DNA from: Promethearchaeota archaeon
Lineage (GTDB): Archaea > Asgardarchaeota > Heimdallarchaeia > Hodarchaeales > Hodarchaeaceae
Length of the DNA: 24,000 bases
Assembly: GCA_048939265.1 (NCBI GenBank)
Contig: JBHLPQ010000005.1
Span: forward strand, 24,736-48,735
Reading direction: 5' to 3'
Under the pieces are notes generated by a model. That model saw only the letters and a list, made by a program, of their open reading frames with translations. It was not told the origin of the DNA and ran no database searches. Position numbers and translations under genes: made by a program. Shown in pieces: positions 407 through 21,095 of the stretch (the first letter of the stretch is position 1; each line of letters begins with the position of its first letter).

Positions 407-1239
407 AGAGGTATGCGATTTGTTTGGGTTATTTACCTACACTTGACTATTCAGGATTCAGTAATCAATTACATGACCCTCAAAACATCTACACGATTGT
501 TTTCTCGGCATTTAAAAGAGCTCGATTAATCAATCTCAAGTTAGATCAACAAATACATTATTCAAGTCGTACTGATCGTGGTGTAGGAGCACTTAACCAA
601 GTTATAGCATTAAACGCTGAAAAAACGCCAATTCTATCTGAAATAAATTCATACCTCCCTGATTCAATTCGAGCATTAAGTTTCACTAATGTAAGTTCAA
701 AATTTCATCCGAGACGAGATGCACAATTACGGACTTATTCATACTTTTTAACTGTTGATGGCGATTTTAATCTCGCCCTCGCCCGTAAGGTTTTAAAAAT
801 GCTAGTAGGACGTCATGATTTTCATAATTTTGCCAAAAGAGATCCAACAAAAGAAATTAACACTGTGAAAAATCTAGAAACAGCTGATATTTCCATTGTT
901 GGTGAAGATATCTATCAAATTCGATTGTCCTCTAAATCTTTCCTCTGGCAACAAATACGGCGAATAGTTAATCATGTAATTGAAGTGTCGACAGGCATAT
1001 ACAGTTTAGAATACACCCGTCAATTACTAAGTCCAAAACCCGCAAAAATTAAACCGACTCCAGCCTCACCAGAAAATCTTATCTTAGAAGATATTCAATA
1101 TCAAGAGGTCAATTTTTATTATGACCAAAAAGCGCTTCAGTCATTTATTTACATTTTGAAAGAGCAGCTCCTGGTTGCTAAAGCGAAAACAGCGGTATTT
1201 AGTTTCATAAACAATCATTTAAAAGGTAAACTAGATTGA
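403..1239 (+). CDS. truA: tRNA pseudouridine synthase A (Psi38-40), TruA family
   Basis: It carries the catalytic-loop motif SRTDRGVGALNQV (RTDxGV with the catalytic Asp), a later GRHDFHNF motif and FLWQQIRRIV. At 278 aa it matches archaeal TruA in length. It has a 4-nt ATGA overlap with the upstream GTPase gene. Confidence 0.85.
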   Translation: MKRYAICLGYLPTLDYSGFSNQLHDPQNIYTIVFSAFKRARLINLKLDQQIHYSSRTDRGVGALNQVIALNAEKTPILSEINSYLPDSIRALSFTNVSSKFHPRRDAQLRTYSYFLTVDGDFNLALARKVLKMLVGRHDFHNFAKRDPTKEINTVKNLETADISIVGEDIYQIRLSSKSFLWQQIRRIVNHVIEVSTGIYSLEYTRQLLSPKPAKIKPTPASPENLILEDIQYQEVNFYYDQKALQSFIYILKEQLLVAKAKTAVFSFINNHLKGKLD

Positions 1240-1273: not shown

Positions 1274-1552
1274 ATGCGACTCAGAGATGAAACTTGGAGA
1301 TTAAGTAGATTAGGACTGATTAAGGAAGATGAAACGACAAAATACCGCAAGTATTGGAGAATATCATCAAGTAAGGACTCAAAAACTCTGATTCAAGATT
1401 ATTTAAATCAGTATCAGGCAAAAAAGAGAGGAAGAAATGAAATACGGACCAAAGATGTTTATTACGTCCCTATACGCCAGCTTGAGAGATATTTTTTTTG
1501 CTCTGAAGTCAGTTTTTCAAGTTCAATCCCGAGGGCTTCACACTTGAGATAA
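1274..1552 (+). CDS. Hypothetical small protein, weak winged-helix-like segment; doubtful gene
   Basis: The ORF fills the truA-ahcY gap. The segment LSRLGLIKEDETTKYRKYWRIS resembles a recognition-helix-plus-wing of a wHTH. Its last ~90 nt run antisense through the 3' end of ahcY, and I recognise no conserved family motif. Confidence 0.25.
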   Translation: MRLRDETWRLSRLGLIKEDETTKYRKYWRISSSKDSKTLIQDYLNQYQAKKRGRNEIRTKDVYYVPIRQLERYFFCSEVSFSSSIPRASHLR

Positions 1553-2805
1553 GCCACGTCGTTATCGATGTCATCAGGAATTTGGACAACTTTTCCTCCA
1601 AGATCTCCTAACTCTTTTTTATGTTTAACGATATGTTCGCTAGCTAAAGCTTGTAAAGAGAAACTTAAATCCATCACACTTGGTGGATGTCCCTCAGCTG
1701 CAGCTAGATTAATTAATCGTCCTTCTCCTAACAGATTTATCTTCCGTCCATCTTTCAGAGTATACTGTTCAACAAACTGCCGAATCTGGATTTTATTGGT
1801 TGCTAAGGCTTCCAATGCGGGAATGTTAATCTCAACATTGAAGTGACCGGTGTTACAAGTAACTACTCCGTCTTTCATCACTTCAAAGTGTTCTTTACGC
1901 ACCACGTCTTTACATCCTGTTGCTGTGATGATAATATCTGCGATTTGCGCTGCTTCGTGCATGGGCATCACTTCCATTCCATCCATCACTGCCTGGAGTG
2001 CCGCGTGTGGCTCTACTTCGGTTACTATCACTCTGCGTGCCCCCATTCCTTTTGCTCGGGCCGCTACTCCTTTTCCGCAATGACCGTATCCCGCAACCAC
2101 AAAGACCTTCGATGCGATCAGGTCCGCAGTTGCTCTTAGGATCCCATCGATACTGGATTGGCCAGTCCCGTACACATTGTCAAACATATTCTTACAGGGG
2201 GAGGAGTTAGTAGCCATAATAGGGTATAGTAGAGCTCCGTCATCTGCCATGGCTTGGAGACGAATGATTCCTGTAGTGGTTTCCTCTGCTCCTGCCCAAA
2301 CTCCATCAATGATATCAGTTACATCACCAATGACCTTTCTAACTATTTCTACTTCCTCATCTGTTTCCCCTCGCTTCAGTTTGTGCAGAATTGAAACTAA
2401 ATCAGCCCCATCATCGATTGTAATATGCGGTCTTGCATTAATGACATGACCAATGGCACGATAATATCCTTCAGTGTTCATAAACTTCCAAGCATATACT
2501 TGGACACCCTTTGAGACAAGGGCCGCAGTGATCTCATCTTGGGACGATAATGGATTTGAAGCACAGAGGAAGACTTCTGCCCCCCCTGCGAGCCATGCTT
2601 CACATAATTGTGATGTTTCTTTGGTAACATGGAGACAGGCTCCAATGCGTACACCTTTAAGTGGTTTTTCTTCTTCAAAACGCTTCTTTATAAGCTGTAG
2701 AACAGGCATTCGACTTGCTGCCCATTCCATGGTTTTTAATCCTTCTTCTTTAAGCGAAAAATCTCTTATTTCGTATGTTTCACCTTTTTCTGTCTGAATT
2801 GCCAA
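1462..2805 (-). CDS. ahcY: Adenosylhomocysteinase (S-adenosyl-L-homocysteine hydrolase)
   Basis: The full-length 447-aa product has an N-terminus YEIRDFSLKEEGLKTMEWAASRMPVL, a NAD-binding GYGHCGKG Rossmann motif and HFNVEI and LLGEGRLINLAAAEGHP segments characteristic of AhcY. The start codon is TTG (caa at 2803-2805), with no in-frame ATG upstream. Confidence 0.95.
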   Translation of the reverse strand: MAIQTEKGETYEIRDFSLKEEGLKTMEWAASRMPVLQLIKKRFEEEKPLKGVRIGACLHVTKETSQLCEAWLAGGAEVFLCASNPLSSQDEITAALVSKGVQVYAWKFMNTEGYYRAIGHVINARPHITIDDGADLVSILHKLKRGETDEEVEIVRKVIGDVTDIIDGVWAGAEETTTGIIRLQAMADDGALLYPIMATNSSPCKNMFDNVYGTGQSSIDGILRATADLIASKVFVVAGYGHCGKGVAARAKGMGARRVIVTEVEPHAALQAVMDGMEVMPMHEAAQIADIIITATGCKDVVRKEHFEVMKDGVVTCNTGHFNVEINIPALEALATNKIQIRQFVEQYTLKDGRKINLLGEGRLINLAAAEGHPPSVMDLSFSLQALASEHIVKHKKELGDLGGKVVQIPDDIDNDVAYLKCEALGIELEKLTSEQKKYLSSWRIGT

Positions 2806-7114: not shown

Positions 7115-7561
7115 AATAGAATCCTTCTAATTTAATTTTATCTAACTAGTAAATTTCTGATATGAATACTTAGGGACTAGGAGCTGTTCTAACGAAAAAG
7201 ATTGATACAAACATTATCAAAGGAATAAAAAGTCATATATTAAATTAATTACTACATTTCAACGATTAAGGATTAAGTTTGGGATTTTGAGAAAAAGGAT
7301 TCGGTCAAACAGAAACCCAATCTTCAAATTATCTTCGACCATACGTCCTTTAGTTATTATATCTTCCATGATCTTAGTAGACAAAGGTACAAATATGCAA
7401 TAAAGAGAAAATCATAACATAAACACCAAGATATAGACTCAAAATTGAATATATAAGGATAAAAAGCCTTTTAAGACTCGGTTTTATCCCCAAAAGAAAT
7501 CATTTTATTTAAGAAAAAATAGGGTAATTTGGATAACTTCTCTCCTGTGGTGATCCTCGAA

Positions 7562-8146
7562 ATGACGACTAATGAAATAGATATATCTCCAGAATCACTT
7601 AAAAAAGTAGTAAAAAAGATTAAGATAGAAGAAGATCTGAAAAAATTGGAGAAAAAGAAAGAAAAGCTTAAAATTCGTGCTGAAATCGAAGAATCAGATT
7701 TCAGTGAAGAAATAAATGAGCTTGATCTGAAAATCGCAGAATTAATTAAAGAAAAAGAGCAATACGGCACATTAGAGCATCCGTTATTTGATCTGGTAAA
7801 GAAACAGAAAATCTTACAAGAACGTATTAAGAAATTAGAGGATAAAAGGCCCACAATTCAAAACTCAGTATATGAATCTCTTAAGAATGAATATTTGGGA
7901 GAAAAAGAAGCAGTAACACAACAAATTGATCAGGTTATAGATCAATTAAAAGAATTAAATCGAGGAGCTTCGAAAGGTGCTCAATCCCTAAAATATAGTA
8001 TCGAAGAACTTACTGTCCGAAAAGAGATAGAAGAAATTCCAGAAGATGTATTCAATCAGAGGATTTCGGATTTGAAGAATGAGCTAACACAATCAGAGGA
8101 ATTACTGTCAGCCACAAAGTTCCTACTAGAAATGGTGAAAGAATAA
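7562..8146 (+). CDS. Hypothetical coiled-coil protein
   Basis: The 194-aa product from the first ATG is Lys/Glu-rich with heptad-like periodicity throughout (KKLEKKKEKLKIRAEIEE..., LKNELTQSEELL). I recognise no catalytic motif. The ORF track starts it at a TTG at 7529, and I prefer the ATG at 7562. Confidence 0.5.
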   Translation: MTTNEIDISPESLKKVVKKIKIEEDLKKLEKKKEKLKIRAEIEESDFSEEINELDLKIAELIKEKEQYGTLEHPLFDLVKKQKILQERIKKLEDKRPTIQNSVYESLKNEYLGEKEAVTQQIDQVIDQLKELNRGASKGAQSLKYSIEELTVRKEIEEIPEDVFNQRISDLKNELTQSEELLSATKFLLEMVKE

Positions 8147-8470
8147 TTGACTTCAGAATTCACAATCCGATTAAAAGAAGCAGAAGAATTAGTTGAGAAT
8201 AGTTGTGTTAAAAAATATTTAATCCGTTTGAAAAGTACCGAACACGTAGAACGATGGGTTGTTGTCGGAAACACACGAAATTACTTAATTATGGTGAATC
8301 CTTATTGGTGTCGCTGTTATGATTTTCAACATAGTGTATTGAATAACCGTGTTCCTCAATGCAAACACAACTTAGCTGTTCAAATCGCACTTCGTGACAA
8401 AAAATATGATACTTATTATCTAAATAAGGAAGAATATGATTTAATTCGTTCAGAATTCTTATTAACTTAA
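8147..8470 (+). CDS. SWIM-type zinc-finger protein
   Basis: It carries a CxCx(n)CxH signature: C-R-C-YDFQHSVLNNRVPQ-C-K-H, followed by NLAVQIAL. The TTG start immediately abuts the TAA stop of the coiled-coil gene (TAATTG), suggesting coupled translation. There is no in-frame ATG before residue ~49. Confidence 0.6.
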   Translation: MTSEFTIRLKEAEELVENSCVKKYLIRLKSTEHVERWVVVGNTRNYLIMVNPYWCRCYDFQHSVLNNRVPQCKHNLAVQIALRDKKYDTYYLNKEEYDLIRSEFLLT

Positions 8471-9468
8471 CCATCTCCTCTTTCAAGTACCAATATTTTC
8501 TCAAAAAGCTGAAAGAGGAAATTTTTAATAGTTTTAATTTCCAATAAGGGTGCGTTGTATCCTGCTGCGCTATCGTGTCCCCCTCCTGTCCCTCCAAACT
8601 GGTTTATTAATTCAGGGATAATATCTTTTCCAAGAGATATTCCTGTTTCTTTTGGAAGACTTGAAGTTGTACGTAAGCTGATTCGTGTTTCCTGTTTCCT
8701 ATTCGCTATGACAATAGTAATATCTCCTCCCAAAAAGATGAGTGAACGAGCTGCTGCTGCCTCAAACGAGCTCACATATGAAAATAATAAGATTTTGTCT
8801 TTAATGGTAACCCTCTTCATACGTTGAGCTGCTTTAATGCATGCTAACTTTTCTGATTGGGTACGAGAAGAAGTGAATAGTTTCATTGTATCAAGATAGA
8901 TATTTGGACTATTCTGGAGGAGAAAATTGACACAATCGAAAAGTTCGCTATCAGCGTTTAGAAATCGTCTTGTATCATAAATAATTCCTGCAAGAAGCCC
9001 TTTAATTACCTGTTTTGTAAGAGGGATTTCCTCATTGTAATACCATGATGCAATGATTTCAGTAGTTGAATAGAAAGAATTCAGTTGATAATCAAATATT
9101 ACTTCAACTTCTGGTGGTATAGGGACATGATGATCTATAATAGCAAATTGCCTTTTAGGAGTAATCAATTGAGGATCGATATAATTTGTATCAAGAAACA
9201 CAAATAATGCGGGAGGATTTACTTGGTTGACCTCAATGGTTTCTAAATGAAAATCAGAAAACTCTAATAGATTGTGTCCTAAAACGCTCAGTGTGGGTTC
9301 TAGAGTACGAATTATTAGATTAGGGTTCGTTATTTGAATTAAATGGGTTAAACCAATAGCTGCTCCAACAGCGTCAGGATCAGCTTGAGAATGCATTACT
9401 AAAACAATCATACCTTGAAAATTTCTAAGAAATTCTAAAAACATACTAGGAGAAGGAATGGGTCTCAC
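8467..9468 (-). CDS. DHH/DHHA1 family phosphoesterase (NrnA / small RecJ-like)
   Basis: DHH motifs appear in order: HSQADPDAVGAA, FLDTN, IIDHHVP and IIYDTRRF, followed by the DHHA1 motif GGTGGGHDSAAG. It is 333 aa long. Confidence 0.8.
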   Translation of the reverse strand: MRPIPSPSMFLEFLRNFQGMIVLVMHSQADPDAVGAAIGLTHLIQITNPNLIIRTLEPTLSVLGHNLLEFSDFHLETIEVNQVNPPALFVFLDTNYIDPQLITPKRQFAIIDHHVPIPPEVEVIFDYQLNSFYSTTEIIASWYYNEEIPLTKQVIKGLLAGIIYDTRRFLNADSELFDCVNFLLQNSPNIYLDTMKLFTSSRTQSEKLACIKAAQRMKRVTIKDKILLFSYVSSFEAAAARSLIFLGGDITIVIANRKQETRISLRTTSSLPKETGISLGKDIIPELINQFGGTGGGHDSAAGYNAPLLEIKTIKNFLFQLFEKILVLERGDG

Positions 9469-10150: not shown

Positions 10151-10288
10151 TAGGGACGGGGGGATTTTCATTAGACGGCATATACTCATACTAATTTTGA
10201 ACCCCCGATCTCTTGGTCCCGAACCAAGAATCCTTTAGCCATCATATCTTCCTCAGATACAATTAAGACCAAACTAGACTACGTCCCT
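10151..10288 (-). tRNA. tRNA-Pro(CGG) with two non-canonical introns (D loop and T loop)
   Basis: Hand fold on the minus strand: acceptor AGGGACG/CGTCCCT, U8, D stem GTCT/GGAT, anticodon stem CTTGG/CCAAG, loop TTCGGGA (anticodon at 10219-10221), T stem GGGGG/CCCCC and discriminator A. The gene is 138 nt because of a ~29-nt insertion in the D loop (about 10238-10266) and a 31-nt insertion in the T loop (10165-10195). The T-loop insertion is framed by helix TTCA/TGAA and 3-nt bulges AAA and AAT. There is no intron at 37/38 and no encoded CCA. Confidence 0.85.
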
Positions 10289-10442
10289 TTTCTAATTTTG
10301 TATTCAATTGTATTCTAAGGATTTCAATTCTATAAAATCAAAGTTTGCGTATGATTTAAGCTTTTCTGGCTTAGGTATCCCTAAAAGAGGTATGATGTAT
10401 TTTGATGGTGAATTCATTCTCAAGCAAATTGAATGAAAAAGA

Positions 10443-10847
10443 TTAAAGATCTTCAAATCCTTCGTCTACTATTTCCTCATCTTCATCTGAGACTTCTTTG
10501 GCTTCTTTTGCCGCTGTTGCCGCTGCTAATGTAATAAATTCCGAATAACGTGTAAGAAGTTGACTGATTTTGTCATCTGATAAACGATCACCAGTTATCG
10601 CTCGGACATCAATCGGTTTTTTGGGATTTATATTCAGGATTTGGACAACAAGGATTCGAGGAAGATCAAATTCTTCTTTTAATGCTTGAATAGCTTCCTC
10701 CGAGAAAGCAGCATCACGTGATAATTTCTCAGCATGTTGTGCTGTGACCCGTTGTACATAATTGATACCTGTTTCCTCTCGAATTTTCAAAAGTTCATGT
10801 ACTTGCCCTAAAGTAATCGGTTTTTCATCCAGGACTTTTCTAACCAT
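10443..10847 (-). CDS. rpoF: DNA-directed RNA polymerase subunit Rpo4/F
   Basis: The N-terminus MVRKVLDEKPITLGQVHELLKIREE and the overall helical HRDC-like pattern resemble Rpo4/F. It sits immediately downstream of L21e, the gene order conserved across archaea. It carries an unusual Ala-rich plus acidic C-terminal extension. Confidence 0.8.
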   Translation of the reverse strand: MVRKVLDEKPITLGQVHELLKIREETGINYVQRVTAQHAEKLSRDAAFSEEAIQALKEEFDLPRILVVQILNINPKKPIDVRAITGDRLSDDKISQLLTRYSEFITLAAATAAKEAKEVSDEDEEIVDEGFEDL

Positions 10848-10879
10848 TTTTAACTACCATTCTACAAAAATGCTATTTA

Positions 10880-11176
10880 TCAGTGTAGTTGTGCTTTAAG
10901 ATGTTCAGGTCGGGCGATTATTTTCTTATAGCTATTTCCATCGGAAACTTGGATTAAGTACGATTGTCCACGTTTTTCTAAAACAACTCCGGTTTTCCCA
11001 TGAAATCTTCTATGGGGGCGTCCTTTTTGAACACTAGGTTCGATAACAATATTTACTTTGGAGTTCACCTCATAATTCGCTAATGTTCGGGATAAAGAGG
11101 GTAAACCACGTTTCCTCGGATGTTTAGAGAATATTTTCCGTGTCCTAAAATTCATACCTTTTGATTTCTTAACCAT
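10880..11176 (-). CDS. rpl21e: 50S ribosomal protein L21e (eL21)
   Basis: The 98-aa product has FRTRKIFSKHPRKRGLPSLSR, KVNIVIEPSVQKGRPHRRFHGKTGVV and ARPEHL, all hallmark eL21 segments. Confidence 0.95.
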   Translation of the reverse strand: MVKKSKGMNFRTRKIFSKHPRKRGLPSLSRTLANYEVNSKVNIVIEPSVQKGRPHRRFHGKTGVVLEKRGQSYLIQVSDGNSYKKIIARPEHLKAQLH

Positions 11177-11315
11177 TCTGTTCTTTCTCCAAGTGATTGT
11201 GCTCTTTTAGGGTTTTAAGTTAAGATAAGGGCTATTGGCTTCAGTAACACCACTAGAAAGGGTTTTTTTAAACATATTTTTGGATTTCTTTTGATAAATC
11301 CTTCAGACGAAGATA

Positions 11316-12671
11316 TCAAAAGGAGTCCTTCTCATTCAAAACTTCAATAACGTCAAGTTGAATAACCGCAGCATTAGTATTAAGACGATCTGAAAGATTC
11401 GGTTGAGTTCGTCCACCATCTCCACTGATTAACTCTTTCACATATAGTCCTCCCTCACAAACTACATATGCTGTCAATTGTTGTGGTTCCAATTTCTCAA
11501 TCTGGAATTTTTGAACTTTTCTTACCCGAATTTTATCAGCGCGACGATGAACTACTCGCAATGGGGTTCGCTGTTGAATAAGTGAGCCAGAAAATTCATC
11601 TACAATAGCTGATATTTCCGTTTCTTCAAGATGGATAGGGGGATCTAAAGAAATAATCATTCGATAACCTTTTGCATTCCTACTCGATCGTGTCTTAAGC
11701 TCTCGAACTTTAGCCCGGGTAGTTAGTCCTTCGATATCAATTTCAACTTTTCCTTTTGCTTTTTTATTTACCATTTCCTTAATTTGTTTGAGATTTAATT
11801 TTCTCTTTTTTGGTTCAGAGATTTCAAGAATAAACGGTCTTCCATTTCCTAGCATAAGGGCATCGATATCTTCTCGGCCTGAACCGTGAAATTTGCTGGC
11901 TCTTCCTTCAGCTTCAACACGGAAAGGTTCTGAAACGTATTCTTCCACTGATTCTTGGTACATCTTTCCCGTAAAATTACAATATTCACACCCCTTCCCT
12001 CTACATTTCCGACAAAACCATTTTGACTGTGGGATTCCCCGTTCTAATTTTCTGTATCGCCCCAATATGAAAAGAGGATTTGGTTTAATATGAATTTGAT
12101 TATTGAGAAGATCAAATGTTAATACAATATCTGGAGCTTTAAATTCTACAGTCGCGTAATCTATTCGTTCTTGTAACATTTTACCAATTTCACGGTTAAA
12201 CTCAGATTTAATCGCCTCTCCAAATTCAAGATTATAGGTACTTCGAATTGAATCTTCTTTATCGATTATTGAAGGAGAAAATTGACTTCCCACAAGAAAA
12301 GTAGAAAATTCATAGTCATCAAGAATTTTTAGAGCATCTTCAACAATTGTTTTCATATTTTGAGAAGAAAGAATTCCCTGACAAATTTCACAACGGGAAT
12401 CATTGGCTTGTATTTCTGGATGAAATCGTTGGATTGATCTTTCCCCAATTATAAAGTCTTCAGACAACAAAGAAGATATTTTTAGAGGCTCCATTTTTGA
12501 TAATCGGTACGTATTCTCCCATTCCATTAGAAGTAGTATCTTTAGTGCTTCACCTCGTTTTTTATTAGATAGTCCTGATAATAAATTACCAAATTGTCGA
12601 CCTAAGCATGAATTACAGCAATGTACATCCATAATTAGTTGCTTAGCCTTGTTTAAGATTGGTAATTCCAT
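11316..12671 (-). CDS. pus10: tRNA pseudouridine synthase Pus10 (Psi54/Psi55)
   Basis: It has an N-terminal zinc-ribbon CCNSCLGRQFGNL plus CEIC and CRKCRGKGCEYC, a THUMP-like middle region, and a catalytic segment GSGREDIDALMLGNGRPFILEI with the conserved Asp. I place the start at the internal ATG at 12671 (MELPILNKAKQL...), which matches the usual Pus10 N-terminus. The ORF track extends to 12737. Confidence 0.9.
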   Translation of the reverse strand: MELPILNKAKQLIMDVHCCNSCLGRQFGNLLSGLSNKKRGEALKILLLMEWENTYRLSKMEPLKISSLLSEDFIIGERSIQRFHPEIQANDSRCEICQGILSSQNMKTIVEDALKILDDYEFSTFLVGSQFSPSIIDKEDSIRSTYNLEFGEAIKSEFNREIGKMLQERIDYATVEFKAPDIVLTFDLLNNQIHIKPNPLFILGRYRKLERGIPQSKWFCRKCRGKGCEYCNFTGKMYQESVEEYVSEPFRVEAEGRASKFHGSGREDIDALMLGNGRPFILEISEPKKRKLNLKQIKEMVNKKAKGKVEIDIEGLTTRAKVRELKTRSSRNAKGYRMIISLDPPIHLEETEISAIVDEFSGSLIQQRTPLRVVHRRADKIRVRKVQKFQIEKLEPQQLTAYVVCEGGLYVKELISGDGGRTQPNLSDRLNTNAAVIQLDVIEVLNEKDSF

Positions 12672-12869
12672 CAACAGACTCCCTTCATTAGGAATGGATA
12701 GGAAGCGAAGAGTATTTGCCTCAATTTTGAGAGACAATTTGTTTTATAATCGCATATCTAAGAAATTTTTTTATTTTTTTTCTCCAGATCAAATAATTGA
12801 ACAAAAAACAGAACCCAATTGTAATTAAATGATTCAGTTTATCTAGATAACAGGAGCAGGTAAATTGTT

Positions 12870-13412
12870 ATGAGACGATTTTTTGTGATTTCAAACACTG
12901 TAGATACTTCTAAATCTTTATCTCTAAATTCCTTAACAGGATATGGCCGATTGGATGTTCTATGCCGCTGCATTAATGCAGCTTTCTTTCTTTCCAACGA
13001 TTTTCGAAAGAATGTTGTCCTCAGTATTTTTTTTAAAATTAATAATAAAATTTTAGAAATATGGGGAAATGAAGTTCGTGGGATAAATCCAGACGAACGA
13101 GCTATTGCAGGAGTACTTAAACGTGTCTTTAACGGTCATTCTCACCCTGGGACAAGATTTTATTCGTCTTCTTTAGAACAATATTTTCAAAAACGGAATT
13201 TTATTATTATTGATAGAAAAGGGGATCAATTATTAAATAAACTTAGCGAATATGATTCATTCATGCTTGGAGATCAGGTGGGTTTTCCAAAAGAGATTTA
13301 CTTTCTGTTTACACATCAACCAAAAATATCCTTAGGAATCCCTATATATTTAAGTTCGCAGGTGATAACAATCCTTAATTATCTCCTAGATAACATTGAA
13401 CTAGATGAATGA
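12870..13412 (+). CDS. trmY: tRNA (pseudouridine54-N1)-methyltransferase TrmY (SPOUT, DUF358 family)
   Basis: The N-terminus MRRFFVISNT...LTGYGRLDVLCRCINAAFFLSNDFRKNV and the C-terminal MLGDQVGF...LGIPIYLSSQVITILNYLLD (SPOUT knot region) fit the family, as does the ~180-aa size. It is divergently paired with pus10. Confidence 0.8.
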   Translation: MRRFFVISNTVDTSKSLSLNSLTGYGRLDVLCRCINAAFFLSNDFRKNVVLSIFFKINNKILEIWGNEVRGINPDERAIAGVLKRVFNGHSHPGTRFYSSSLEQYFQKRNFIIIDRKGDQLLNKLSEYDSFMLGDQVGFPKEIYFLFTHQPKISLGIPIYLSSQVITILNYLLDNIELDE

Positions 13413-13447
13413 CATTCTAAGTAGAAAAACATCGGAGTTTGATACGT

Positions 13448-14812
13448 ATGCTTGATTCTTTGAGCTCATCATTACGGAAAGCAATCATGAAAGTTCGTGG
13501 TGCACCTATAGTTGATGAGAAGTTAATTAATGCCTTAATCACCGATTTAGAAAATGCTCTTCTTGCTGCTGATGTTAACCTTGATTTGGTACTCACTGTT
13601 ACTGAAAGAGTACGTGAAAGAGCTCTCAAAGATATCTTACCCATGGCTATCAGTCGTAAAGACTATACTCTAAAAGTGATCTATGATGAACTAGCTAGTC
13701 TATTGGGGAAAAGACATACTCCATTACGTCTAAATCCTGATGATCTATCAATTTTAATGTTCATTGGTATCCAAGGATCAGGTAAAACAACATGTATCGG
13801 AAAAACTGCAAATTACTTTCAAAAAAGGGGATATTCTGTTGGAGTTATTGGTGGAGATACGTTTAGGCCTGGTGCTTTAGCCCAACTTCAACAATTTCTT
13901 TCACCCATAAATGTGGAAGTTTTTGGGGATGAAAAGGAGAAAAAAGCTTCTAAAATCATTAAAAGGGGATTAAAGCACTTTGAAGAGAAAAAAAATATCA
14001 ATCTTATTTTAGTAGATACAGCAGGACGACATAAAGAAGAAAAAGCTTTATTAAAAGAAATGCAAGAAATTGCTAAAATAGCTAAACCCACAGAAATTGT
14101 ATTAGTAATTGATGCTACAATAGGACAACAAGCTCAAGCACAAGCCGATGCTTTCAATCGTGCAACCCCTATTGGATCGATCATTTTAACAAAGATGGAT
14201 GGTTCAGCTAAAGGCGGGGGAGCAGTCTCTGCTGTTGCTGTGACAGGAGCAAAAATTCGATTCTATGGTGATGGGGAAAATATTCAAGATTTAGAGGAGT
14301 TCAACCCAACTCGATTCGTTGGATCTTTATTAGGGCTGGGTGATATAGAGGGTTTGATACAAAGTGTTAATGAAGCATTTGATGAGGAAGATACGGCCGA
14401 ACTTCGCGATGCATTCAAAAAAGGGAAGTTAACATTACGCCATTTCAAAATCCAGATGGAAAATGCTAGTAAACAATCATCAATTGGAAAATTGGTTTCA
14501 AAAATCCCTGGCGTAAGCACATTAACAGGTCAACAACCTATATTAGAAGCAGAAGGTCAAAGAAACATGAAACGCTTCATTGCGATTTGTAATTCGATGA
14601 CAGATGAAGAATTAGATAATGCTCGAATAATTAAAGGTAAACGTATTCAGAGAATAGCACAAGGATCAGGAACTTCCCCTCAAGAAGTGAAACTTCTTTT
14701 AAATCAGTTTAATCAAGCTTCAAAACAATTAAAAATGATGCGAAAGATGAGAGGACGACGGGGAGCTCCTCCAGGTGGGATCCCACCAGGCTTAGAAGGC
14801 TTACTCGGATAA
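13448..14812 (+). CDS. srp54: Signal recognition particle protein SRP54
   Basis: It has an N domain MLDSLSSSLRKAI, a G domain with GIQGSGKTT, DTAGRH and TKMDG, and an M domain with a Met-rich segment (LKMMRKMRGRRG). The ATG at 13448 is preferred over the track's TTG at 13439. Confidence 0.95.
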   Translation: MLDSLSSSLRKAIMKVRGAPIVDEKLINALITDLENALLAADVNLDLVLTVTERVRERALKDILPMAISRKDYTLKVIYDELASLLGKRHTPLRLNPDDLSILMFIGIQGSGKTTCIGKTANYFQKRGYSVGVIGGDTFRPGALAQLQQFLSPINVEVFGDEKEKKASKIIKRGLKHFEEKKNINLILVDTAGRHKEEKALLKEMQEIAKIAKPTEIVLVIDATIGQQAQAQADAFNRATPIGSIILTKMDGSAKGGGAVSAVAVTGAKIRFYGDGENIQDLEEFNPTRFVGSLLGLGDIEGLIQSVNEAFDEEDTAELRDAFKKGKLTLRHFKIQMENASKQSSIGKLVSKIPGVSTLTGQQPILEAEGQRNMKRFIAICNSMTDEELDNARIIKGKRIQRIAQGSGTSPQEVKLLLNQFNQASKQLKMMRKMRGRRGAPPGGIPPGLEGLLG

Positions 14813-14862
14813 GGTTGAAGCGATTAAAAATAAAATTCTTGTGTTATACAAAGAAAAAGAAA

Positions 14863-15000
14863 TGCTCCGACCGGGATTTTCCAACCACAAACAATGCGTT
14901 TAGGTTCTTTGAACCCGGGTCACAGGGGAGCTCCTGAAAGTCTGAGTAACAGACTCTCATTGAGAGCCCTGAATGATGGGCCGAGCTACACTATCGGAGC
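14863..15000 (-). tRNA. tRNA-Glu(CTC) with canonical intron plus T-loop intron
   Basis: Fold: acceptor GCTCCGA/TCGGAGC, D arm GTGTAGCTCGGCCCATCAT, anticodon stem CAGGG/CCCTG and T stem CCGGG/CCCGG. A 32-nt intron at 37/38 (14929-14960) has central helix CTCT/GGAG flanked by bulges CAA and CTC, giving the loop CTCTCAC. A second 31-nt insertion splits the T loop TTCAAA|..|T (14877-14907). The discriminator is A, followed by an oligo-T tract. Confidence 0.9.
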
Positions 15001-15023
15001 AAATCGTGAAAACCAAATCTCAA

Positions 15024-15032
15024 TAATATATA
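15024..15032 (-). promoter_or_regulatory. Putative TATA box for tRNA-Glu
   Basis: The minus strand reads TATATATTA about 24-32 nt upstream of the mature 5' end at 15000. It is supported by position and composition only. Confidence 0.3.
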
Positions 15033-15079
15033 GATTTTTTTGATACAATATTCTTGCATGGACTAACCTGAACTAATTA

Positions 15080-15300
15080 TGCTGGGGGGGGGCCTTTCGT
15101 GAGGTAAATCGCAATTTACCTGAATTCGAACCCCCGACTTCGGGATGTCTCGTCTGAAAGCGCGATCTGTGCCCTTAGAAGGTTATGAGTATTATTCTCA
15201 GATTATGAGTCCCGCGCTATCGGCCTTCTGACTATTGACAGTAAGATTATACCAGGCTTAGCCACGATATAATGATTATTATCGTTTAAGCCACCCCAGC
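15080..15300 (-). tRNA. tRNA(CAT), elongator Met-like (could be Ile2), interrupted by four inserted segments
   Basis: The exons assemble into a canonical 73-nt cloverleaf. Its parts are acceptor GCTGGGG/CCCCAGC, UG, D stem GCTA/TAGC, D loop AGCCTGG.A, G26, anticodon stem CGGGA/TCCCG and loop CTCATAA. These are followed by variable AAGTC, T stem GGGGG/CCCCC, T loop TTCGAA.G and discriminator A. The insertions are ~29 nt in the D stem (15260-15288), ~31 nt in the D loop (15221-15251), 57 nt at 37/38 (15147-15203) and 31 nt in the T loop (15094-15124). G1:C72 argues against an initiator. Confidence 0.8.
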
Positions 15301-15322
15301 AAATATAATTGGGGGTAATCAC

Positions 15323-15328
15323 CTTATA
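15323..15328 (-). promoter_or_regulatory. Putative TATA box for tRNA(CAT)
   Basis: The minus strand reads TATAAG at -28 to -23 relative to the mature 5' end at 15300. It is supported by position only. Confidence 0.3.
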
Positions 15329-15487
15329 CGGATGAGCATTCAGCAATACGCCTTGCAGTGGCTCTAGGATTTTAAGGTTATGCAGGAACATCTTTAAGAG
15401 AGGATCAATTTAAAAAATTGTGAAAGGAGGGACAGACTTGGACGTATAATTAACAATAAGGTTATAAACGCCTTTATTTAGTATCTA

Positions 15488-15595
15488 GCCCCGGTGGTGT
15501 AGTCTGGCCTAGCATTGATGGCTGTCAAAGGCTTATCACCTCTGATAGTCTGCCGAACCCATCCGACTCGGGTTCAAATCCCGACCGGGGCGCCA
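15488..15595 (+). tRNA. tRNA-Asp(GTC) with canonical intron; CCA encoded
   Basis: Fold: acceptor GCCCCGG/CCGGGGC, D arm GTGTAGTCTGGCCTAGCAT, anticodon stem GATGG/CCATC, loop CTGTCA|intron|C (anticodon 15524-15526), T arm TCGGGTTCAAATCCCGA and discriminator G. The 30-nt intron is at 15528-15557. CCA at 15593-15595 follows the discriminator; this is the only tRNA in the window with a genomic CCA. Confidence 0.95.
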
Positions 15596-15604
15596 AAAAT
15601 TCAA

Positions 15605-15709
15605 GGGCGCATAGCTCAGCCAGGTAGAGCGACAGGCTTTTAATGATTAAATTTTAATAGTTAAACTGAAGATACCTGTTGGCCGGGGGTTCAAATCCCT
15701 CTGCGCCCG
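15605..15709 (+). tRNA. tRNA-Lys(TTT) with canonical intron
   Basis: Fold: acceptor GGGCGCA/TGCGCCC, D arm GCTCAGCCAGGTAGAGC, anticodon stem ACAGG/CCTGT, loop CTTTTA|intron|A (anticodon 15639-15641) and T arm GGGGGTTCAAATCCCTC. The 31-nt intron at 15643-15673 has central helix CTTT/GAAG and bulges TAA and ATA. The gene lies 9 nt after the encoded CCA of tRNA-Asp (12 nt after its discriminator), so the two are probably co-transcribed. Confidence 0.95.
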
Positions 15710-15715
15710 CTGAAA

Positions 15716-15723
15716 TTTTGTTT
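15716..15723 (+). terminator. Oligo-T tract after the tRNA-Asp/tRNA-Lys pair
   Basis: TTTTGTTT begins 7 nt after the tRNA-Lys discriminator. Archaeal transcription commonly terminates at oligo-T tracts. Confidence 0.35.
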
Positions 15724-15740
15724 CTATTAACCTTGGCTTT

Positions 15741-17015
15741 CTAATTTTTTGGGGTGGCTCTCTCAACAGTTGTAAAGGTCATTGACAAAAGTAAAATAAT
15801 TGCTATGATTGTCATAATGCCTCCATAAATAAATGCAAAGGTAGGGGCTATATAATATAAAGATCCAGCAATGATTCCGCCAAGAATACCCGCAAATCCG
15901 ACAGAAGTCTGTAATAATCCTATTCCAGTTCCTTTAAGATCTTGGGGGAGTAAATCTACTGCGTATGCTTTTTGAATTCCATCAGTTGCAGCATTAAAAG
16001 CACCATATACTCCGAAAAATAGGAAAAGTAGGATAATATTTGTAGTAAATAGGAATCCAAAACATGTAATGGCATATAAAATTAGGCCAATTGCAAAAAC
16101 TTGTTTTCGACCATACTTATCAGACCAATCACCGAAAGGAATAGATAAAACCGTATAGATTATATTAAACCAAATAAAGATAATAATTGGAATTATTAAT
16201 AGCACTAGAGGGGTAGTCATTTCATTCATTCCTAAAACAGCTGTTTTTGAATGAAGAATAAACAAAAATATGGTAAAATTAGCTAATCCAAAGATTATTG
16301 AGACTAGTAGAAATTTATAATAGTTTTTAGGCAAATCTTTCAAATTTTGGATTAATGTAATTTTCAATTGCTCTCTTCTAGAACCATAATCAGCCGATTC
16401 TGAGATAAAAAATAATGGAATCAAAGCAAGTAGTGATATGAAAGCAGAAATGATAATAATAATCTTGAAAATTTCCAATTCACTGATTAAGATGTCGAAA
16501 AAGAGAAGAGCAATTATTAATGCTAGAAATGATCCAATAACAGCTCCTGCTGTGTCCATCATTCGATGAAAACCAAAAGCTTTTCCTCTTAAATTAATTG
16601 AAATTGAATCAGCGAGTAAAGAATCCCGTGGAGCACCTCGAATTCCTTTTCCTAATCTCTCAATCGGTTTCAAGATTAATATTTGTTCCCACGAGTTCGA
16701 TATACCAATTCCTAGTTTCGCAAAAAAAGGAATAAAATACCCTATAGTAATTATTTGTTTTCTTTTTCTTGTCTTATCAGATAAGTATCCGGAAAATACC
16801 TTGACAATATTTGCTACCGCGTCTCCTAAACCTCCAATGAATCCAATAACGATACTAGAGCCTCCTAACGCAGCGATAAAGAGAGGTAATACTGGAGTCA
16901 TCATCTCTCCTGATATGTCCGCAAAGAAAGAGACAAGACCCAGTAAAAGAACATTCCCTGAATACCATTTCACATGCTCCTTTTTTTTGATACCATTAGA
17001 AAGCTTCTGATTCAA
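15741..17015 (-). CDS. Major facilitator superfamily transporter
   Basis: The 424-aa product has about 12 hydrophobic spans in a two-halves organisation. It has MFS-like loop motifs (GYLSDKTRKRK after TM2, DKYGRKQVF after TM8). The substrate is not inferable. Confidence 0.8.
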   Translation of the reverse strand: MNQKLSNGIKKKEHVKWYSGNVLLLGLVSFFADISGEMMTPVLPLFIAALGGSSIVIGFIGGLGDAVANIVKVFSGYLSDKTRKRKQIITIGYFIPFFAKLGIGISNSWEQILILKPIERLGKGIRGAPRDSLLADSISINLRGKAFGFHRMMDTAGAVIGSFLALIIALLFFDILISELEIFKIIIIISAFISLLALIPLFFISESADYGSRREQLKITLIQNLKDLPKNYYKFLLVSIIFGLANFTIFLFILHSKTAVLGMNEMTTPLVLLIIPIIIFIWFNIIYTVLSIPFGDWSDKYGRKQVFAIGLILYAITCFGFLFTTNIILLFLFFGVYGAFNAATDGIQKAYAVDLLPQDLKGTGIGLLQTSVGFAGILGGIIAGSLYYIAPTFAFIYGGIMTIIAIILLLSMTFTTVERATPKN

Positions 17016-17153
17016 TAAATTCCACCCAGTCTCTTTCTTGAACTGACCTTTGATTGACCTGTACTTTTATTTAGCTTTTCTCTTCAGACTATCTAACTGT
17101 TATTTGCTGACAAAGATCTTAATCACAAAAGAGCTTTAGGAGTTTCTTTAATC

Positions 17154-18086
17154 ATGGATGTTATACTAATTGGAAACTCAAACTTTGCAGGTAAAATTGC
17201 AGAAGCATTACCATCTTCAGCCTACATTGGAATTGACGAAAGGATATTTTCTGATGGTGAAGTTTGTCCCCGCTTATTACTCTCTGAGGAGAACCAATTG
17301 AAAGGGGCCCACGTTGTTATTGCACTGCAATTGGAGCTGGATCAATCCAAAAACCAATATTTAGTCAGCTTACTCTGGACAATTTATAATGTTAAACGAC
17401 ATGATCCAGCACGAATTACATGTATAATGCCGTATCATCTCTATTCCAGACAAGATAGAGAATCTAGAAGGGGAGAACCTATTTCAAGCAGACATCTAGC
17501 TTCAGCACTAGAATCAGCTGGAATTGACGATTTTCTTACTATTAATTCACACACTTATGGAAAAGTAGATATTGCTCAATTTTTTACAAATTCTCAAGCT
17601 AACGATCTTTCTGCAATATCAATCTTAGGAACTGCTTTAAAATCACGTCTGTCATCCCCTCGAGAATGTATTTGTCTCTCCCCAGATGAAGGCGCTCTTT
17701 TTCTCGCAAAAGAGCTTGCGCAAGCAATGGACACACCTTATTTCGCTTCTATTCAAAAAACAAGGGATCCACAAACTGGTGAAATAACTCAAGAACTACA
17801 AACTCTTCCTTTCGAAATTAAGGATCAAACAGTGATTATTATAGATGATTTAGTTAGTTCTGGTAAAACGATGATTGGTGCTGCGAAGATCGCAAAAGCT
17901 AAAGGGGCTAAGGAAGTGATTTTTGCTTATATACACGCAGTTCATTCCCCCACTAGCTTTACAACAATGCTAGAAGTGAACCCCATTCTAACTATTGCTA
18001 CAGACACCATTAAAACAGATATCAGTGGACTTACCACTGTGAGTGTTATTCCTCTAATTTGTGACTGGATTAAAAAGAATAGCTAA
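17154..18086 (+). CDS. prs: Ribose-phosphate pyrophosphokinase (PRPP synthetase)
   Basis: It has FSDGEV near the N-terminus, PYHLYSRQDRE (the flexible-loop region) and a PRPP-binding motif IIIDDLVSSGKTM. Confidence 0.9.
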   Translation: MDVILIGNSNFAGKIAEALPSSAYIGIDERIFSDGEVCPRLLLSEENQLKGAHVVIALQLELDQSKNQYLVSLLWTIYNVKRHDPARITCIMPYHLYSRQDRESRRGEPISSRHLASALESAGIDDFLTINSHTYGKVDIAQFFTNSQANDLSAISILGTALKSRLSSPRECICLSPDEGALFLAKELAQAMDTPYFASIQKTRDPQTGEITQELQTLPFEIKDQTVIIIDDLVSSGKTMIGAAKIAKAKGAKEVIFAYIHAVHSPTSFTTMLEVNPILTIATDTIKTDISGLTTVSVIPLICDWIKKNS

Positions 18087-18121
18087 ATCAGTCACCCTGT
18101 GTTTATGCTTTAAAAACGATT

Positions 18122-18265
18122 TCAAGACTCCTGATATTTGTCTATAAGGTCACGGATGGCAGAACGTACAAATTCAGAACGATTTGGATATTTACCATTT
18201 CTGACTAATTCAGCCATGGCATCGATAAGCTCTTCCTCTACATAGAGAGTAACAGTTCGAATCAT
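18122..18265 (-). CDS. Ribbon-helix-helix (CopG/Arc/MetJ-type) DNA-binding protein, 47 aa; absent from the supplied ORF track
   Basis: My translation is MIRTVTLYVEEELIDAMAELVRNGKYPNRSEFVRSAIRDLIDKYQES. It shows the classic RHH pattern: an N-terminal beta strand (RTVTLYV), helix A, a G-x-Y/F-x-(N/S)-RSE turn and helix B. GAGGTG lies 3 nt upstream of the ATG. It is divergent from the methylthiotransferase gene, 68 bp away. Confidence 0.65.
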   Translation of the reverse strand: MIRTVTLYVEEELIDAMAELVRNGKYPNRSEFVRSAIRDLIDKYQES

Positions 18266-18333
18266 TTACACCTCTAGGGAAAAATCAAACACTTCAGTTT
18301 ATATCTCAGACATTAAAAAAAGGTTTTGCACAG

Positions 18334-19674
18334 ATGAATTGTTTGGATCATATTGCAATGAGAACTTTAGAAGAGAGTAAAACTTCTATTCATGTCTTAA
18401 ATTATGGATGTAGTGCTAATCGGGCTATTGCAGAAGGCTTAATGGGGATATTAAAAAGACATGGGTATACTCTCGCCAATTCTATAGAAGATGCTGAAGT
18501 AATAATTGTAAATACATGTGTTGTAAAGCAAAATACAGAGCATAGAATGAAGAGTAAATTACTATCTCTATATAAAACTAAGGAAATTATTGTGACTGGT
18601 TGTTTACCTGTTGTAATGCGTGATTGGATTTCAGAGAACTTACCCAATGCAAAGGTCCTCTTCCCAGAGGTTGCAAAGAACATTATAGAGGTACTTGAGA
18701 ATCGGCCTGTCTTAGAAACGAAGACTACTGTCCCTCACGAATGGTCACAGATGTATTCAGAAGAACGATTTCAATATAATCCTATCATTTCAACGATTGA
18801 AATATCTCGAGGATGTGTGGGAAATTGTGCTTTCTGTATAGTTAGAGATATTAAAGGAACAGTTCGCTCGCGTTCACAAGAATCAATCTTATCTGAAGTT
18901 CAGACCGCATTAGAACAAGGAAGTAGAGAAATTTGGCTTACCTCACAAGATAATGGTGCTTACGGCTGGGATTTCTCCCCCAGGATAAATATCTCAGATC
19001 TTATTAACTCTATCACATGTTTAAGAGGTAATTTTTTCATTCGAGTAGGAATGATGACTCCCATTGCAGTGAAAAGATTTTTCGATCCCTTGATTCAGCA
19101 GATACGGAATCCTAAGGTTTTTTCCTTTCTCCATTTACCGATTCAGGCAGGCTCTAATTCAGTTCTTCGAAGAATGAAAAGAAGAGAGACATATACATAT
19201 TTCATTGACCTTGTCCATCAATTACGCCATGAAATAGATGATTTTGTTCTAGCAACGGATATAATTGTTGGATTTCCAGGGGAATTGGAAGATGATTTCA
19301 AGGCGACTAAAGATCTTCTACAAAGAACAAAACCCGTAATTGTGAACATTTCGAAATATACAGATCGTCCTAATACACTAGCTTCAACCCTACCAAATAA
19401 GATCCCAACAAAAGTTAAAACTAGTAGAAGTCGAGAACTGACAAGATTAACTCAAGATCTAACTAAAAGAGAGCTAAAAAAATGGATTGGTTGGAAGGGA
19501 ATTGTATTAATTGACGAATATGGAAAATTTACTAATCAATATGTTGGAAGAAATCCCTCATATTTGCCAATAGTAATCGATGATAAAGATTTGTTACTAG
19601 GCCAGTTTGTTACAGTCTCTGTAACCGATCTTGGTCCAACATATCTTATTGGTGAAAGTGACAAGACCAATTAA
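18334..19674 (+). CDS. MiaB-like tRNA methylthiotransferase, archaeal/eukaryotic MtaB (CDKAL1) type
   Basis: It has an N-terminal UPF0004 domain (NYGCSANRAIAE...NTCVV), a radical-SAM cluster motif C-VGN-C-AF-C and a C-terminal TRAM-like domain (GQFVTVSVTDLGPTYLIGE). Confidence 0.9.
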   Translation: MNCLDHIAMRTLEESKTSIHVLNYGCSANRAIAEGLMGILKRHGYTLANSIEDAEVIIVNTCVVKQNTEHRMKSKLLSLYKTKEIIVTGCLPVVMRDWISENLPNAKVLFPEVAKNIIEVLENRPVLETKTTVPHEWSQMYSEERFQYNPIISTIEISRGCVGNCAFCIVRDIKGTVRSRSQESILSEVQTALEQGSREIWLTSQDNGAYGWDFSPRINISDLINSITCLRGNFFIRVGMMTPIAVKRFFDPLIQQIRNPKVFSFLHLPIQAGSNSVLRRMKRRETYTYFIDLVHQLRHEIDDFVLATDIIVGFPGELEDDFKATKDLLQRTKPVIVNISKYTDRPNTLASTLPNKIPTKVKTSRSRELTRLTQDLTKRELKKWIGWKGIVLIDEYGKFTNQYVGRNPSYLPIVIDDKDLLLGQFVTVSVTDLGPTYLIGESDKTN

Positions 19675-19684
19675 TCTTTCTATT

Positions 19685-19694
19685 AAAGAAAAAA
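19685..19694 (-). terminator. Oligo-T tract after tRNA-Leu
   Basis: The minus strand reads TTTTTTCTTT immediately after the discriminator base at 19695. Confidence 0.35.
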
Positions 19695-19890
19695 TGCGGG
19701 GGATGGGATTTTCGCCTGCTTAGTTTGAAGCTAAGCAATGTTTCGAACCCACGTACATCTATATGACTGGATTGCTTATCAAATGGCGATCTTAAGTCCA
19801 GCGCCTTTGGACAGCGCATTAATTTATGATATGTTAAGTTATCATCTAGCCCAATTAATGCTGCCTTTGACCTAGCTTGGCTACCCCCGC
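19695..19890 (-). tRNA. tRNA-Leu(TAA) interrupted by three inserted segments
   Basis: The exons give an 85-nt class II tRNA. Its parts are acceptor GCGGGGG/CCCCCGC, D arm GCCAAGCTAGGTCAAAGGC, anticodon stem CTGGA/TCCAG and loop CTTAAGA (anticodon 19792-19794). These are followed by a long variable arm TCATATAGATGTAC, T stem GTGGG/CCCAT and discriminator A. The insertions are 60 nt in the D-arm/position-26 region (19803-19862), 18 nt at 37/38 (19773-19790; helix CTTA/TAAG, bulges AGA and CAA) and 33 nt in the T loop (19709-19741; helix TTCG/CGAA, bulges AAA and AAT). Confidence 0.85.
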
Positions 19891-21022: not shown

Positions 21023-21095
21023 GCGCCGATAGTCCAGCCTGGTAAGACTCCTGTCTGCCACACAGGTGACCTGGGTTCAAATCCCGGTCGGCGCA
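21023..21095 (+). tRNA. tRNA-Gly(GCC), uninterrupted
   Basis: Fold: acceptor GCGCCGA/TCGGCGC, D arm GTCCAGCCTGGTAAGAC, anticodon stem CCTGT/ACAGG, loop CTGCCAC, T arm CTGGGTTCAAATCCCGG and discriminator A. It is 73 nt with no insertion. Confidence 0.95.

Follow-up and report, generated by a model that had tools for sequence, protein, structure and literature searches.

Bulge-helix-bulge introns in the T loop of Hodarchaeales tRNA genes: probable vertical descent, precise loss and new gain at position 59/60

Background

Position 59/60 in the T loop is among the listed non-canonical positions of tRNA introns (PMC4090602), and ARMAN-2 has a 13-nt intron at this site in tRNA-Cys and a pair of introns, at 53/54 and 59/60, in tRNA-Pro (PMC3239211). 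The tRNA-Cys intron was cleaved in vitro (PMC3239211), and the same substrate was reused in a study reporting that Asgard archaea encode an (alpha-beta)2 endonuclease with an L1 loop (PMC5829648). Here we describe four tRNA genes, Pro (CGG), Glu (CTC), CAT and Leu (UAA), that are split at this T-loop site within a 24,000-nt stretch of a Hodarchaeales (Heimdall-group Asgard) genome, hereafter the window, and we compare them with the corresponding genes in related genomes. The ARMAN-2 introns share the T-loop insertion point with the Hodarchaeales ones, ARMAN-2 tRNA-Pro likewise has the strict helix-bulge-helix-bulge-helix form, and broad-specificity endonucleases cleave a 59/60 intron in vitro. 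However, ARMAN-2 belongs to the DPANN superphylum, has an epsilon2 endonuclease and shows single cases per genome, and its Cys intron is 13 nt long with a relaxed motif, whereas the Hodarchaeales introns measure 29-33 nt and occur in about 44% of the tRNA genes of the region.

Several other lineages carry comparable introns. In Thermoproteales, according to the summaries in PMC4033280 and PMC4090602, sequence is shared between the introns of different tRNAs, which led to a transposition model (Sugahara 2008; Fujishima 2010). The same summaries describe several bulge-helix-bulge (BHB) introns per gene, many non-canonical positions including 59/60 and rapid change between species, all of which resemble the situation in Hodarchaeales; in contrast, the intron sequence common to different tRNAs that they report for Thermoproteales is not seen among the seven tRNA families studied here. 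In Atabeyarchaeia and Freyarchaeia, 92-95% of tRNA genes have introns, often several and at non-canonical positions (PMC11291895), and in Supplementary Data 4 of that paper the last intron of many genes stops 17 or 14 nt short of the gene end, which we read as a T-arm site. These are different Asgard classes from ours, and PMC11291895 contains no analysis of intron positions, structure or turnover. Ectopic T-arm introns with BHB-like junctions, and D-loop introns as well, occur in red-algal and nucleomorph tRNA genes (Cyanidioschyzon, Guillardia), but these are eukaryotic nuclear or nucleomorph genes with intron sizes down to 3 nt (PMC4090602, PMC13578239), and we see no evidence of a link by descent between them and the Hodarchaeales introns. 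No paper on Hodarchaeales tRNA introns was found in the literature searched.

Results and discussion

The four split genes lie on the minus strand, and their inserts were read by reverse-complementing the coordinates. Each insert follows T-loop base 59: a G-rich 5-nt stem strand and TTC(A/G)AA stand before it, and one base, the complementary stem strand and the 7-nt acceptor strand stand after it. The inserts occupy positions 10165-10195 in tRNA-Pro(CGG) (31 nt; gene 10151-10288), 14877-14907 in tRNA-Glu(CTC) (31 nt; gene 14863-15000), 15094-15124 in tRNA-CAT (31 nt; gene 15080-15300) and 19709-19741 in tRNA-Leu(UAA) (33 nt; gene 19695-19890), and our analysis confirmed all four at the coordinates and lengths given by an initial annotation of the window. 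We consider it likely that these inserts are BHB introns at position 59/60 with a history of vertical descent, precise loss and new gains at the same site. What decides the case is that excision restores a cloverleaf and that the inserts are conserved, and covary, in genomes assembled independently of one another.

Standard tRNA finders miss the four genes. ARAGORN called one tRNA only in the window (Gly-GCC), and Rfam, even at E<=1, added only Asp-GUC and Lys-UUU. After introns outside the T loop had been delimited against intronless orthologues and all introns had been spliced out in silico, ARAGORN called Pro(cgg) of 77 nt, Glu(ctc) of 75 nt, Met(cat) of 74 nt and Leu(taa) of 85 nt; when the T-loop intron alone was retained and all others were removed, it called none of the four. 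The missing calls could also be taken to mean that the inserts are never spliced and that the genes are pseudogenes or assembly artefacts. This is exceedingly improbable, since the same structures recur in many independent metagenome-assembled genomes (MAGs), where synteny is conserved, the exons are nearly identical and changes are compensatory, and no second copy of the four genes was seen in the window or the syntenic loci.

In the canonical archaeal BHB substrate, the outer helix is provided by the anticodon stem and the central one by loop bases 32-35 and the 3' part of the intron, and the two bulges consist of bases 36 and 37 with the first intron base and of the last two intron bases with base 38. 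With its stem of 5 bp and its loop of 7 nt, the T arm matches the anticodon arm, which makes 59/60 the exact counterpart of 37/38: in both arms the first four loop bases form the central helix, and the cut positions follow loop base 6 and precede loop base 7. The two substrates differ in their location and in the exon strand of the central helix, which in the T arm is the near-invariant UUCR instead of variable anticodon-loop bases. In the window introns, bases 54-57 pair with intron bases n-5 to n-2, which read TGAA in Pro (TTCA:TGAA, 4/4 pairs), CGAA in CAT and Leu (both TTCG:CGAA) and GGAA in Glu (TTCA:GGAA); both bulges are 3 nt long, and the inner helix begins at the second intron base (TTAG:CTAA in Pro, AACC:GGTT in Glu). 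The structural features of the BHB class are thus found here, namely a 4-bp central helix with two opposite-strand 3-nt bulges, outer and inner helices and a cloverleaf on excision. This geometry, in which six loop bases precede the intron and one follows it, leads us to infer a cut between 59 and 60, and A runs permit it to slide by one or two bases with an unchanged product.

Comparison of orthologues upheld this architecture, which the initial annotation had proposed as a 4-bp helix formed by bases 54-57 with 3-nt bulges and an inner hairpin. Among the 32 T-loop introns collected from the window and its relatives, the central helix was fully canonical in 25, and the remaining seven had three of the four pairs. 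In the orthologue alignments the T stem was 100% paired and the inner helices were 83-90% paired and included pairs in which both partners had changed. The CAT family gave a covarying central pair (57:n-5), which was GC in five genomes, AU in two and GU in one; 94.7% of the cells of its alignment were paired compared with at most 61% in slid-partner controls, and its covariation score was reached by no shuffle. The Pro inner helix covaried across seven orthologues, with both-side changes at four pairs. Folding constrained to the BHB form, a check that the initial annotation had suggested, placed each structure within 0.1-1.8 kcal/mol of the minimum free energy. A loose structural scan, which did not serve as our main significance test, found three of the four window introns, compared with 0.12 hits on average over 200 dinucleotide shuffles.

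We propose the following mechanism. In the precursor, the T stem would act as the outer helix and UUCR (54-57) would pair with YGAA (n-5 to n-2); bases 58 and 59 with the first intron base would make one 3-nt bulge, the last two intron bases with base 60 would make the other, and the rest of the intron would form the inner hairpin, the whole copying the canonical 37/38 substrate. The tRNA splicing endonuclease would cut this structure and an RNA ligase would rejoin the exons, with the normal T loop forming only after splicing. Within each tRNA family the intron would be inherited vertically, its helices being maintained by compensatory change, and would often be precisely deleted, while other tRNAs would acquire new introns at this site. 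Its recurrence may stem from UUCR being nearly invariant in all tRNAs, so that any hairpin ending in YGAA plus two bases could complete a BHB there.

For the comparison across genomes, a search with the signal recognition particle protein SRP54 (13439-14812) yielded 15 syntenic loci from Hodarchaeota/Heimdall-group MAGs (76-94% identity; handles L001 to L015), and the remaining matches were bacterial Ffh. The comparison set thus comprises 16 genomes, the window included, and one region only. Twelve window proteins have orthologues in the syntenic loci in conserved order, and their concatenation gave a midpoint-rooted neighbor-joining (NJ) tree, built with missing data. This tree contains well-supported clades A, of (window, L001, L002) plus L003, B, of L004, L014 and L006, and C, of (L010, L011, L013) plus L015; L008, L009, L012, L005 and L007 branch elsewhere.

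A split T loop was found in 32 of the 72 tRNA genes of the region (about 44%), in seven tRNA families and with a patchy distribution; the 32 introns are 29-33 nt long, 22 of them exactly 31 nt. The Pro-CGG intron is present in the window, L001, L002, L003, L008, L010 and L011 and absent from L004, L006, L014 and L009. The Glu-CUC intron is present in the window, L001, L003-L007, L012 and L014 and absent from L002, L008 and L015, and the CAT intron is present in the window, L001-L003, L005, L006, L008, L012 and L014 and absent from L007 and L015. The Leu-UAA intron is shared by the window and L006 (28/33 bases identical), L015 has an unrelated one of 32 nt, and L002, L003, L007, L012 and L014 have none. 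All intronless alleles have exactly the predicted spliced T loop. Further T-loop introns are lineage-specific and stand in genes whose T loop is intact in the window: Gly-GCC in L007 (32 nt), Asp-GUC in L015 (29 nt) and Lys-UUU in L012 and L015 (33 nt each, mutually unrelated). Each genome with at least two captured tRNA genes carries one to four T-loop introns among its two to seven genes, in differing subsets.

Orthologous introns align across genomes, which argues for vertical descent. Mapped on the tree, the distribution requires several precise losses and several lineage-specific appearances; the clearest loss is that of the Glu intron in L002, which is nested among carriers, and the Leu intron, found in clade A (window) and clade B (L006) but not in L002, L003 or L014, implies at least three losses or one allele exchange. 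It is tempting to place all T-loop introns in the Hodarchaeales ancestor and to explain the patchiness by differential loss only: the Pro, Glu and CAT introns do reach deep branches (L007, L012, L010, L011), and absences nested among carriers are clear losses, with precise loss being frequent. We nevertheless regard this scenario as unlikely, because the Lys introns of L012 and L015 are unrelated to each other, the Leu intron of L015 is unrelated to that of the window and L006, and almost every other genome has intronless Gly, Asp and Lys alleles, so that many parallel losses would be needed. Recurrent gain at 59/60 is real. Going further, one could imagine that ongoing gain and loss hold a roughly constant T-loop intron load in Hodarchaeales, with UUCR as a universal docking sequence for a mobile YGAA-NN hairpin, a speculative idea to which we give rather low odds.

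The exon bases next to the introns also vary with intron state. Base 57 of the Leu T loop (window 19742-19747) is G in the intron-bearing alleles of the window and L006 and A in all five intronless orthologues, and in CAT, G57 occurs only in intron-bearing alleles; selection for a central-helix G-C pair, or linkage within a transferred allele, may account for the association. The tRNA-Pro(CGG) gene takes particularly diverse forms. D-loop and T-loop introns occur together in the window (10151-10288, minus strand), L001, L010 and L011, anticodon-loop and T-loop introns in L002 (6528-6663), L003 and L008, and a D-loop intron only in L009 (3890-3995), while the gene is wholly intronless and inverted in L004 (6464-6539), L006 and L014. 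Two 5' forms can be distinguished among these, one with the D-loop intron (window, L001, L009, L010, L011) and, except in L009, a CTTGG anticodon stem, and one with the anticodon-loop intron and a CCCGG stem (L002, L003, L008).

Some observations weigh against the history and structure that we favor. The two Pro 5' forms cut across the protein tree, which makes replacement or exchange of tRNA alleles between lineages plausible and the counts of gain and loss events therefore approximate; the NJ tree itself is midpoint-rooted, has data gaps and includes some deep nodes with less than 65% support. Splicing and the exact cut sites of these genes are deduced from sequence, and the splicing endonuclease gene lies outside the window. 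When RNAfold was run unconstrained on each T arm with its intron, the 4-bp central helix appeared for only 2 of the 32 introns, and pair counting on orthologue alignments and constrained folding were used instead. In addition, the Glu central helix has an A.G mismatch (A57.G) in the window's clade, leaving three pairs, and Glu covariation is weak. For this intron the initial annotation was right about the insert but had drawn a TGGA strand with a 4-nt bulge, which we rejected: without any shift in register, the deep Glu orthologues have TGAA where the window's clade has GGAA, and the mismatched helix with a 3-nt bulge is preferred for that reason, both readings giving the identical spliced product.

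The recurrence of introns at one site in different tRNAs raises the possibility that the four window introns derive from a single mobile intron copied from one tRNA gene to another. Intron cores were aligned locally all against all after trimming one base at the start and six at the end, where the motif constrains the sequence. Scores within families had a median of 13 and a maximum of 48, compared with a median of 8 and a maximum of 19 between families (399 pairs); the shuffled null gave a median of 8, a 99th percentile of 15 and a maximum of 20. The Thermoproteales-type signature, similarity between tRNA families, is therefore absent among the seven families, whose between-family scores equal those of the shuffled null. 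Same-position gains in further tRNAs of sister lineages do speak for mobility, and the Asp intron of L015 gives a weak hint by matching the Glu-family core (L005) at 14 of 17 bases (ATAAACG..GTTTAT), but the single-test p of about 0.0013 for this match is not significant after 399 tests. Moreover, the intron of each family is shared and conserved between genomes, which would make any spread an old one. On these counts a common mobile source for the four introns appears doubtful; their sequences do not support recent transposition among them, and old spread followed by drift is a possible origin. The initial annotation's suggestion of a transposition-like spread accordingly stands as regards recurrent gain at the same site, and fails as regards sequence shared among the four introns. 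It had also held that the same introns at all loci in relatives, conserved by simple vertical inheritance, would speak against spread; orthologous introns are indeed conserved, but their presence is patchy. In L015, the Asp gene with the Glu-like core (1511-1644, plus strand) is adjacent to a Glu gene (952-1089, minus strand) without a T-loop intron, and the Asp intron may represent a transfer between neighbouring genes.

Metagenome data extend this picture. A scan with the pattern GGGTTCRAAN{23,27}YGAAAATCCC returned at least 120 loci (L080-L199). Among the 121 matches listed, 89 combined a perfect T stem with an upstream 7-bp acceptor partner and were accepted as genuine split T arms, the loci ranged from 27 to 68% G+C, and after insert removal ARAGORN assigned about 18 isotypes, an assignment to be trusted chiefly where a gene has no other non-canonical intron. 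At 59/60, introns of about 30 nt are widespread in environmental uncultured archaea. When these 89 introns were pooled with the 32 from Hodarchaeales, six pairs with different acceptor stems scored at least 20, where none were expected. The best cross-tRNA pair consists of near-identical T-loop introns on different metagenome contigs, in tRNA-Lys(CTT) of L103 (1717-1760, plus strand; tgggcttttgatatatcaaaggctttgaaaa) and tRNA-Arg(TCG) of L192 (taggcttttgtcataaatcaaaggctttgaaaa). Near-identical introns in different tRNAs are the kind of evidence used for intron transposition, and these pairs argue for mobility of introns of this type; judging by the L103/L192 pair, which is unrelated to the window introns, intron sharing between different tRNAs does occur somewhere, on contigs without taxon assignment.

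A further explanation is selective. Randau and Soll reportedly hypothesized that disruption of a tRNA gene protects it from integration, and the T-loop introns could accordingly be kept by selection for breaking the attachment (att) site that integrative elements use in the 3' half of tRNA genes. The premise finds support in a single IMG/VR contig (L077), where a 9.2-kb element lies between 85-nt tRNA-Leu 3' repeats (97-181 and 9285-9369) and a tyrosine integrase (8316-9179, minus strand; PF00589, E=1e-27) adjoins one of the repeats. The repeat spans the variable arm, T arm and acceptor strand plus 27 nt downstream, its T arm and acceptor are identical to the spliced window Leu sequence, and the spliced Leu 3' end matches three viral contigs. 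This element shows that att sites of this sort do extend across the T loop, as the premise requires, and does not speak for protection itself. We consider selection of this kind very unlikely to explain the introns: those of the window show no bias to the 3' half (four in T loops, five at 37/38 and four in the D-arm region), the spliced Pro, Glu and CAT 3' ends have no exact match among the viral contigs, intronless alleles carry no insertions, introns are readily lost, and no duplicated, att-like tRNA 3' ends were found in the 16 loci, a sample too small for a comparison of rates.

Two genes for T-loop modification lie near the split tRNA genes. As the initial annotation had noted, the window encodes both Pus10 (11316-12737, minus strand; Pfam Pus10_C, E=2.8e-65, and Pus10_THUMP_arc, E=1.6e-22) and a TrmY-family methyltransferase (12870-13412, plus strand; PF04013 Methyltrn_RNA_2, E=4.7e-26). 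Because the precursor would have U54 and U55 base-paired within the central helix and would have no T loop, it is a reasonable inference that splicing would precede modification by Pus10 and TrmY. Relatives keep the same gene neighbourhood irrespective of intron state, and the location of these two genes beside split tRNA genes therefore looks coincidental.

The remaining introns bring the window total to 13, in six of its seven tRNA genes. The Pro gene, with orthologues in L001-L003, L008, L010 and L011, has a second, D-loop intron of about 30 nt (10235-10264, minus strand, like the other introns of the four split genes), with approximate boundaries placed against intronless L004, L006 and L014, and its removal was required for the ARAGORN call. 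The Glu gene has a canonical 37/38 intron of 32 nt (14929-14960) that ARAGORN reports once the T-loop intron is removed. The CAT gene, which has four introns and full-length orthologues in L001-L003, L006, L008 and L014, is called Met by ARAGORN and may be either Met or Ile2. In addition to the T-loop intron it contains a 37/38 intron of 57 nt (15147-15203), located by in-silico splicing with a boundary that slides by one A, and two D-arm introns, one of 29 nt (15259-15287; likewise found by in-silico splicing and missing in the L007 and L015 orthologues) and one of 30 nt (15220-15249; missing in the L005, L007 and L012 orthologues and necessarily removed to obtain a cloverleaf). The exon's anticodon-loop sequence, ACTCATAA, recurs as a second copy inside the 57-nt intron. 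The Leu gene has three introns, the T-loop one, an 18-nt 37/38 intron (19773-19790) found by in-silico splicing and missing in L015, and a 60-nt intron at the junction of D arm and anticodon stem (19803-19862). The splice site of the last is ambiguous because the direct repeat TCAAAGGC/TCCAAAGGC bounds the intron; such a repeat is not expected from BHB structure alone and could be a trace of intron insertion. A length of about 31 nt was rejected as a signature of T-loop introns, as canonical and D-arm introns in the window also measure 29-32 nt.

The three other tRNA genes are on the plus strand. tRNA-Asp(GUC) (15488-15592; Rfam 43.3 bits) and tRNA-Lys(UUU) (15605-15709; Rfam 60.1 bits) have only a canonical intron and an intact T loop, and tRNA-Gly(GCC) (21023-21095; ARAGORN and Rfam) is intronless. 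Two open reading frames had no Pfam match (7529-8146, plus strand; 10443-10847, minus strand), and the 134-aa one is kept in related loci at 57-92% identity.

Conclusions

BHB introns at 59/60, broad-specificity Asgard endonucleases and heavy tRNA intron loads in other Asgard classes have already been published, and we describe no new mechanism; the Hodarchaeales case is one of a known kind of intron, which in this group is unusually frequent and is quickly gained and lost between related genomes. Standard finders miss four of the seven tRNA genes of the window, and Hodarchaeales genomes will therefore seem to be without essential tRNAs unless BHB-aware tools are used. The 16-genome comparison provides a concrete data set on introns that are precisely lost and repeatedly gained at a single site of defined structure, in the archaeal group nearest to eukaryotes. 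If a steady intron load with docking at UUCR were to prove true, Hodarchaeales would offer a natural system in which to catch tRNA-intron gain in progress, in the closest archaeal relatives of eukaryotes.

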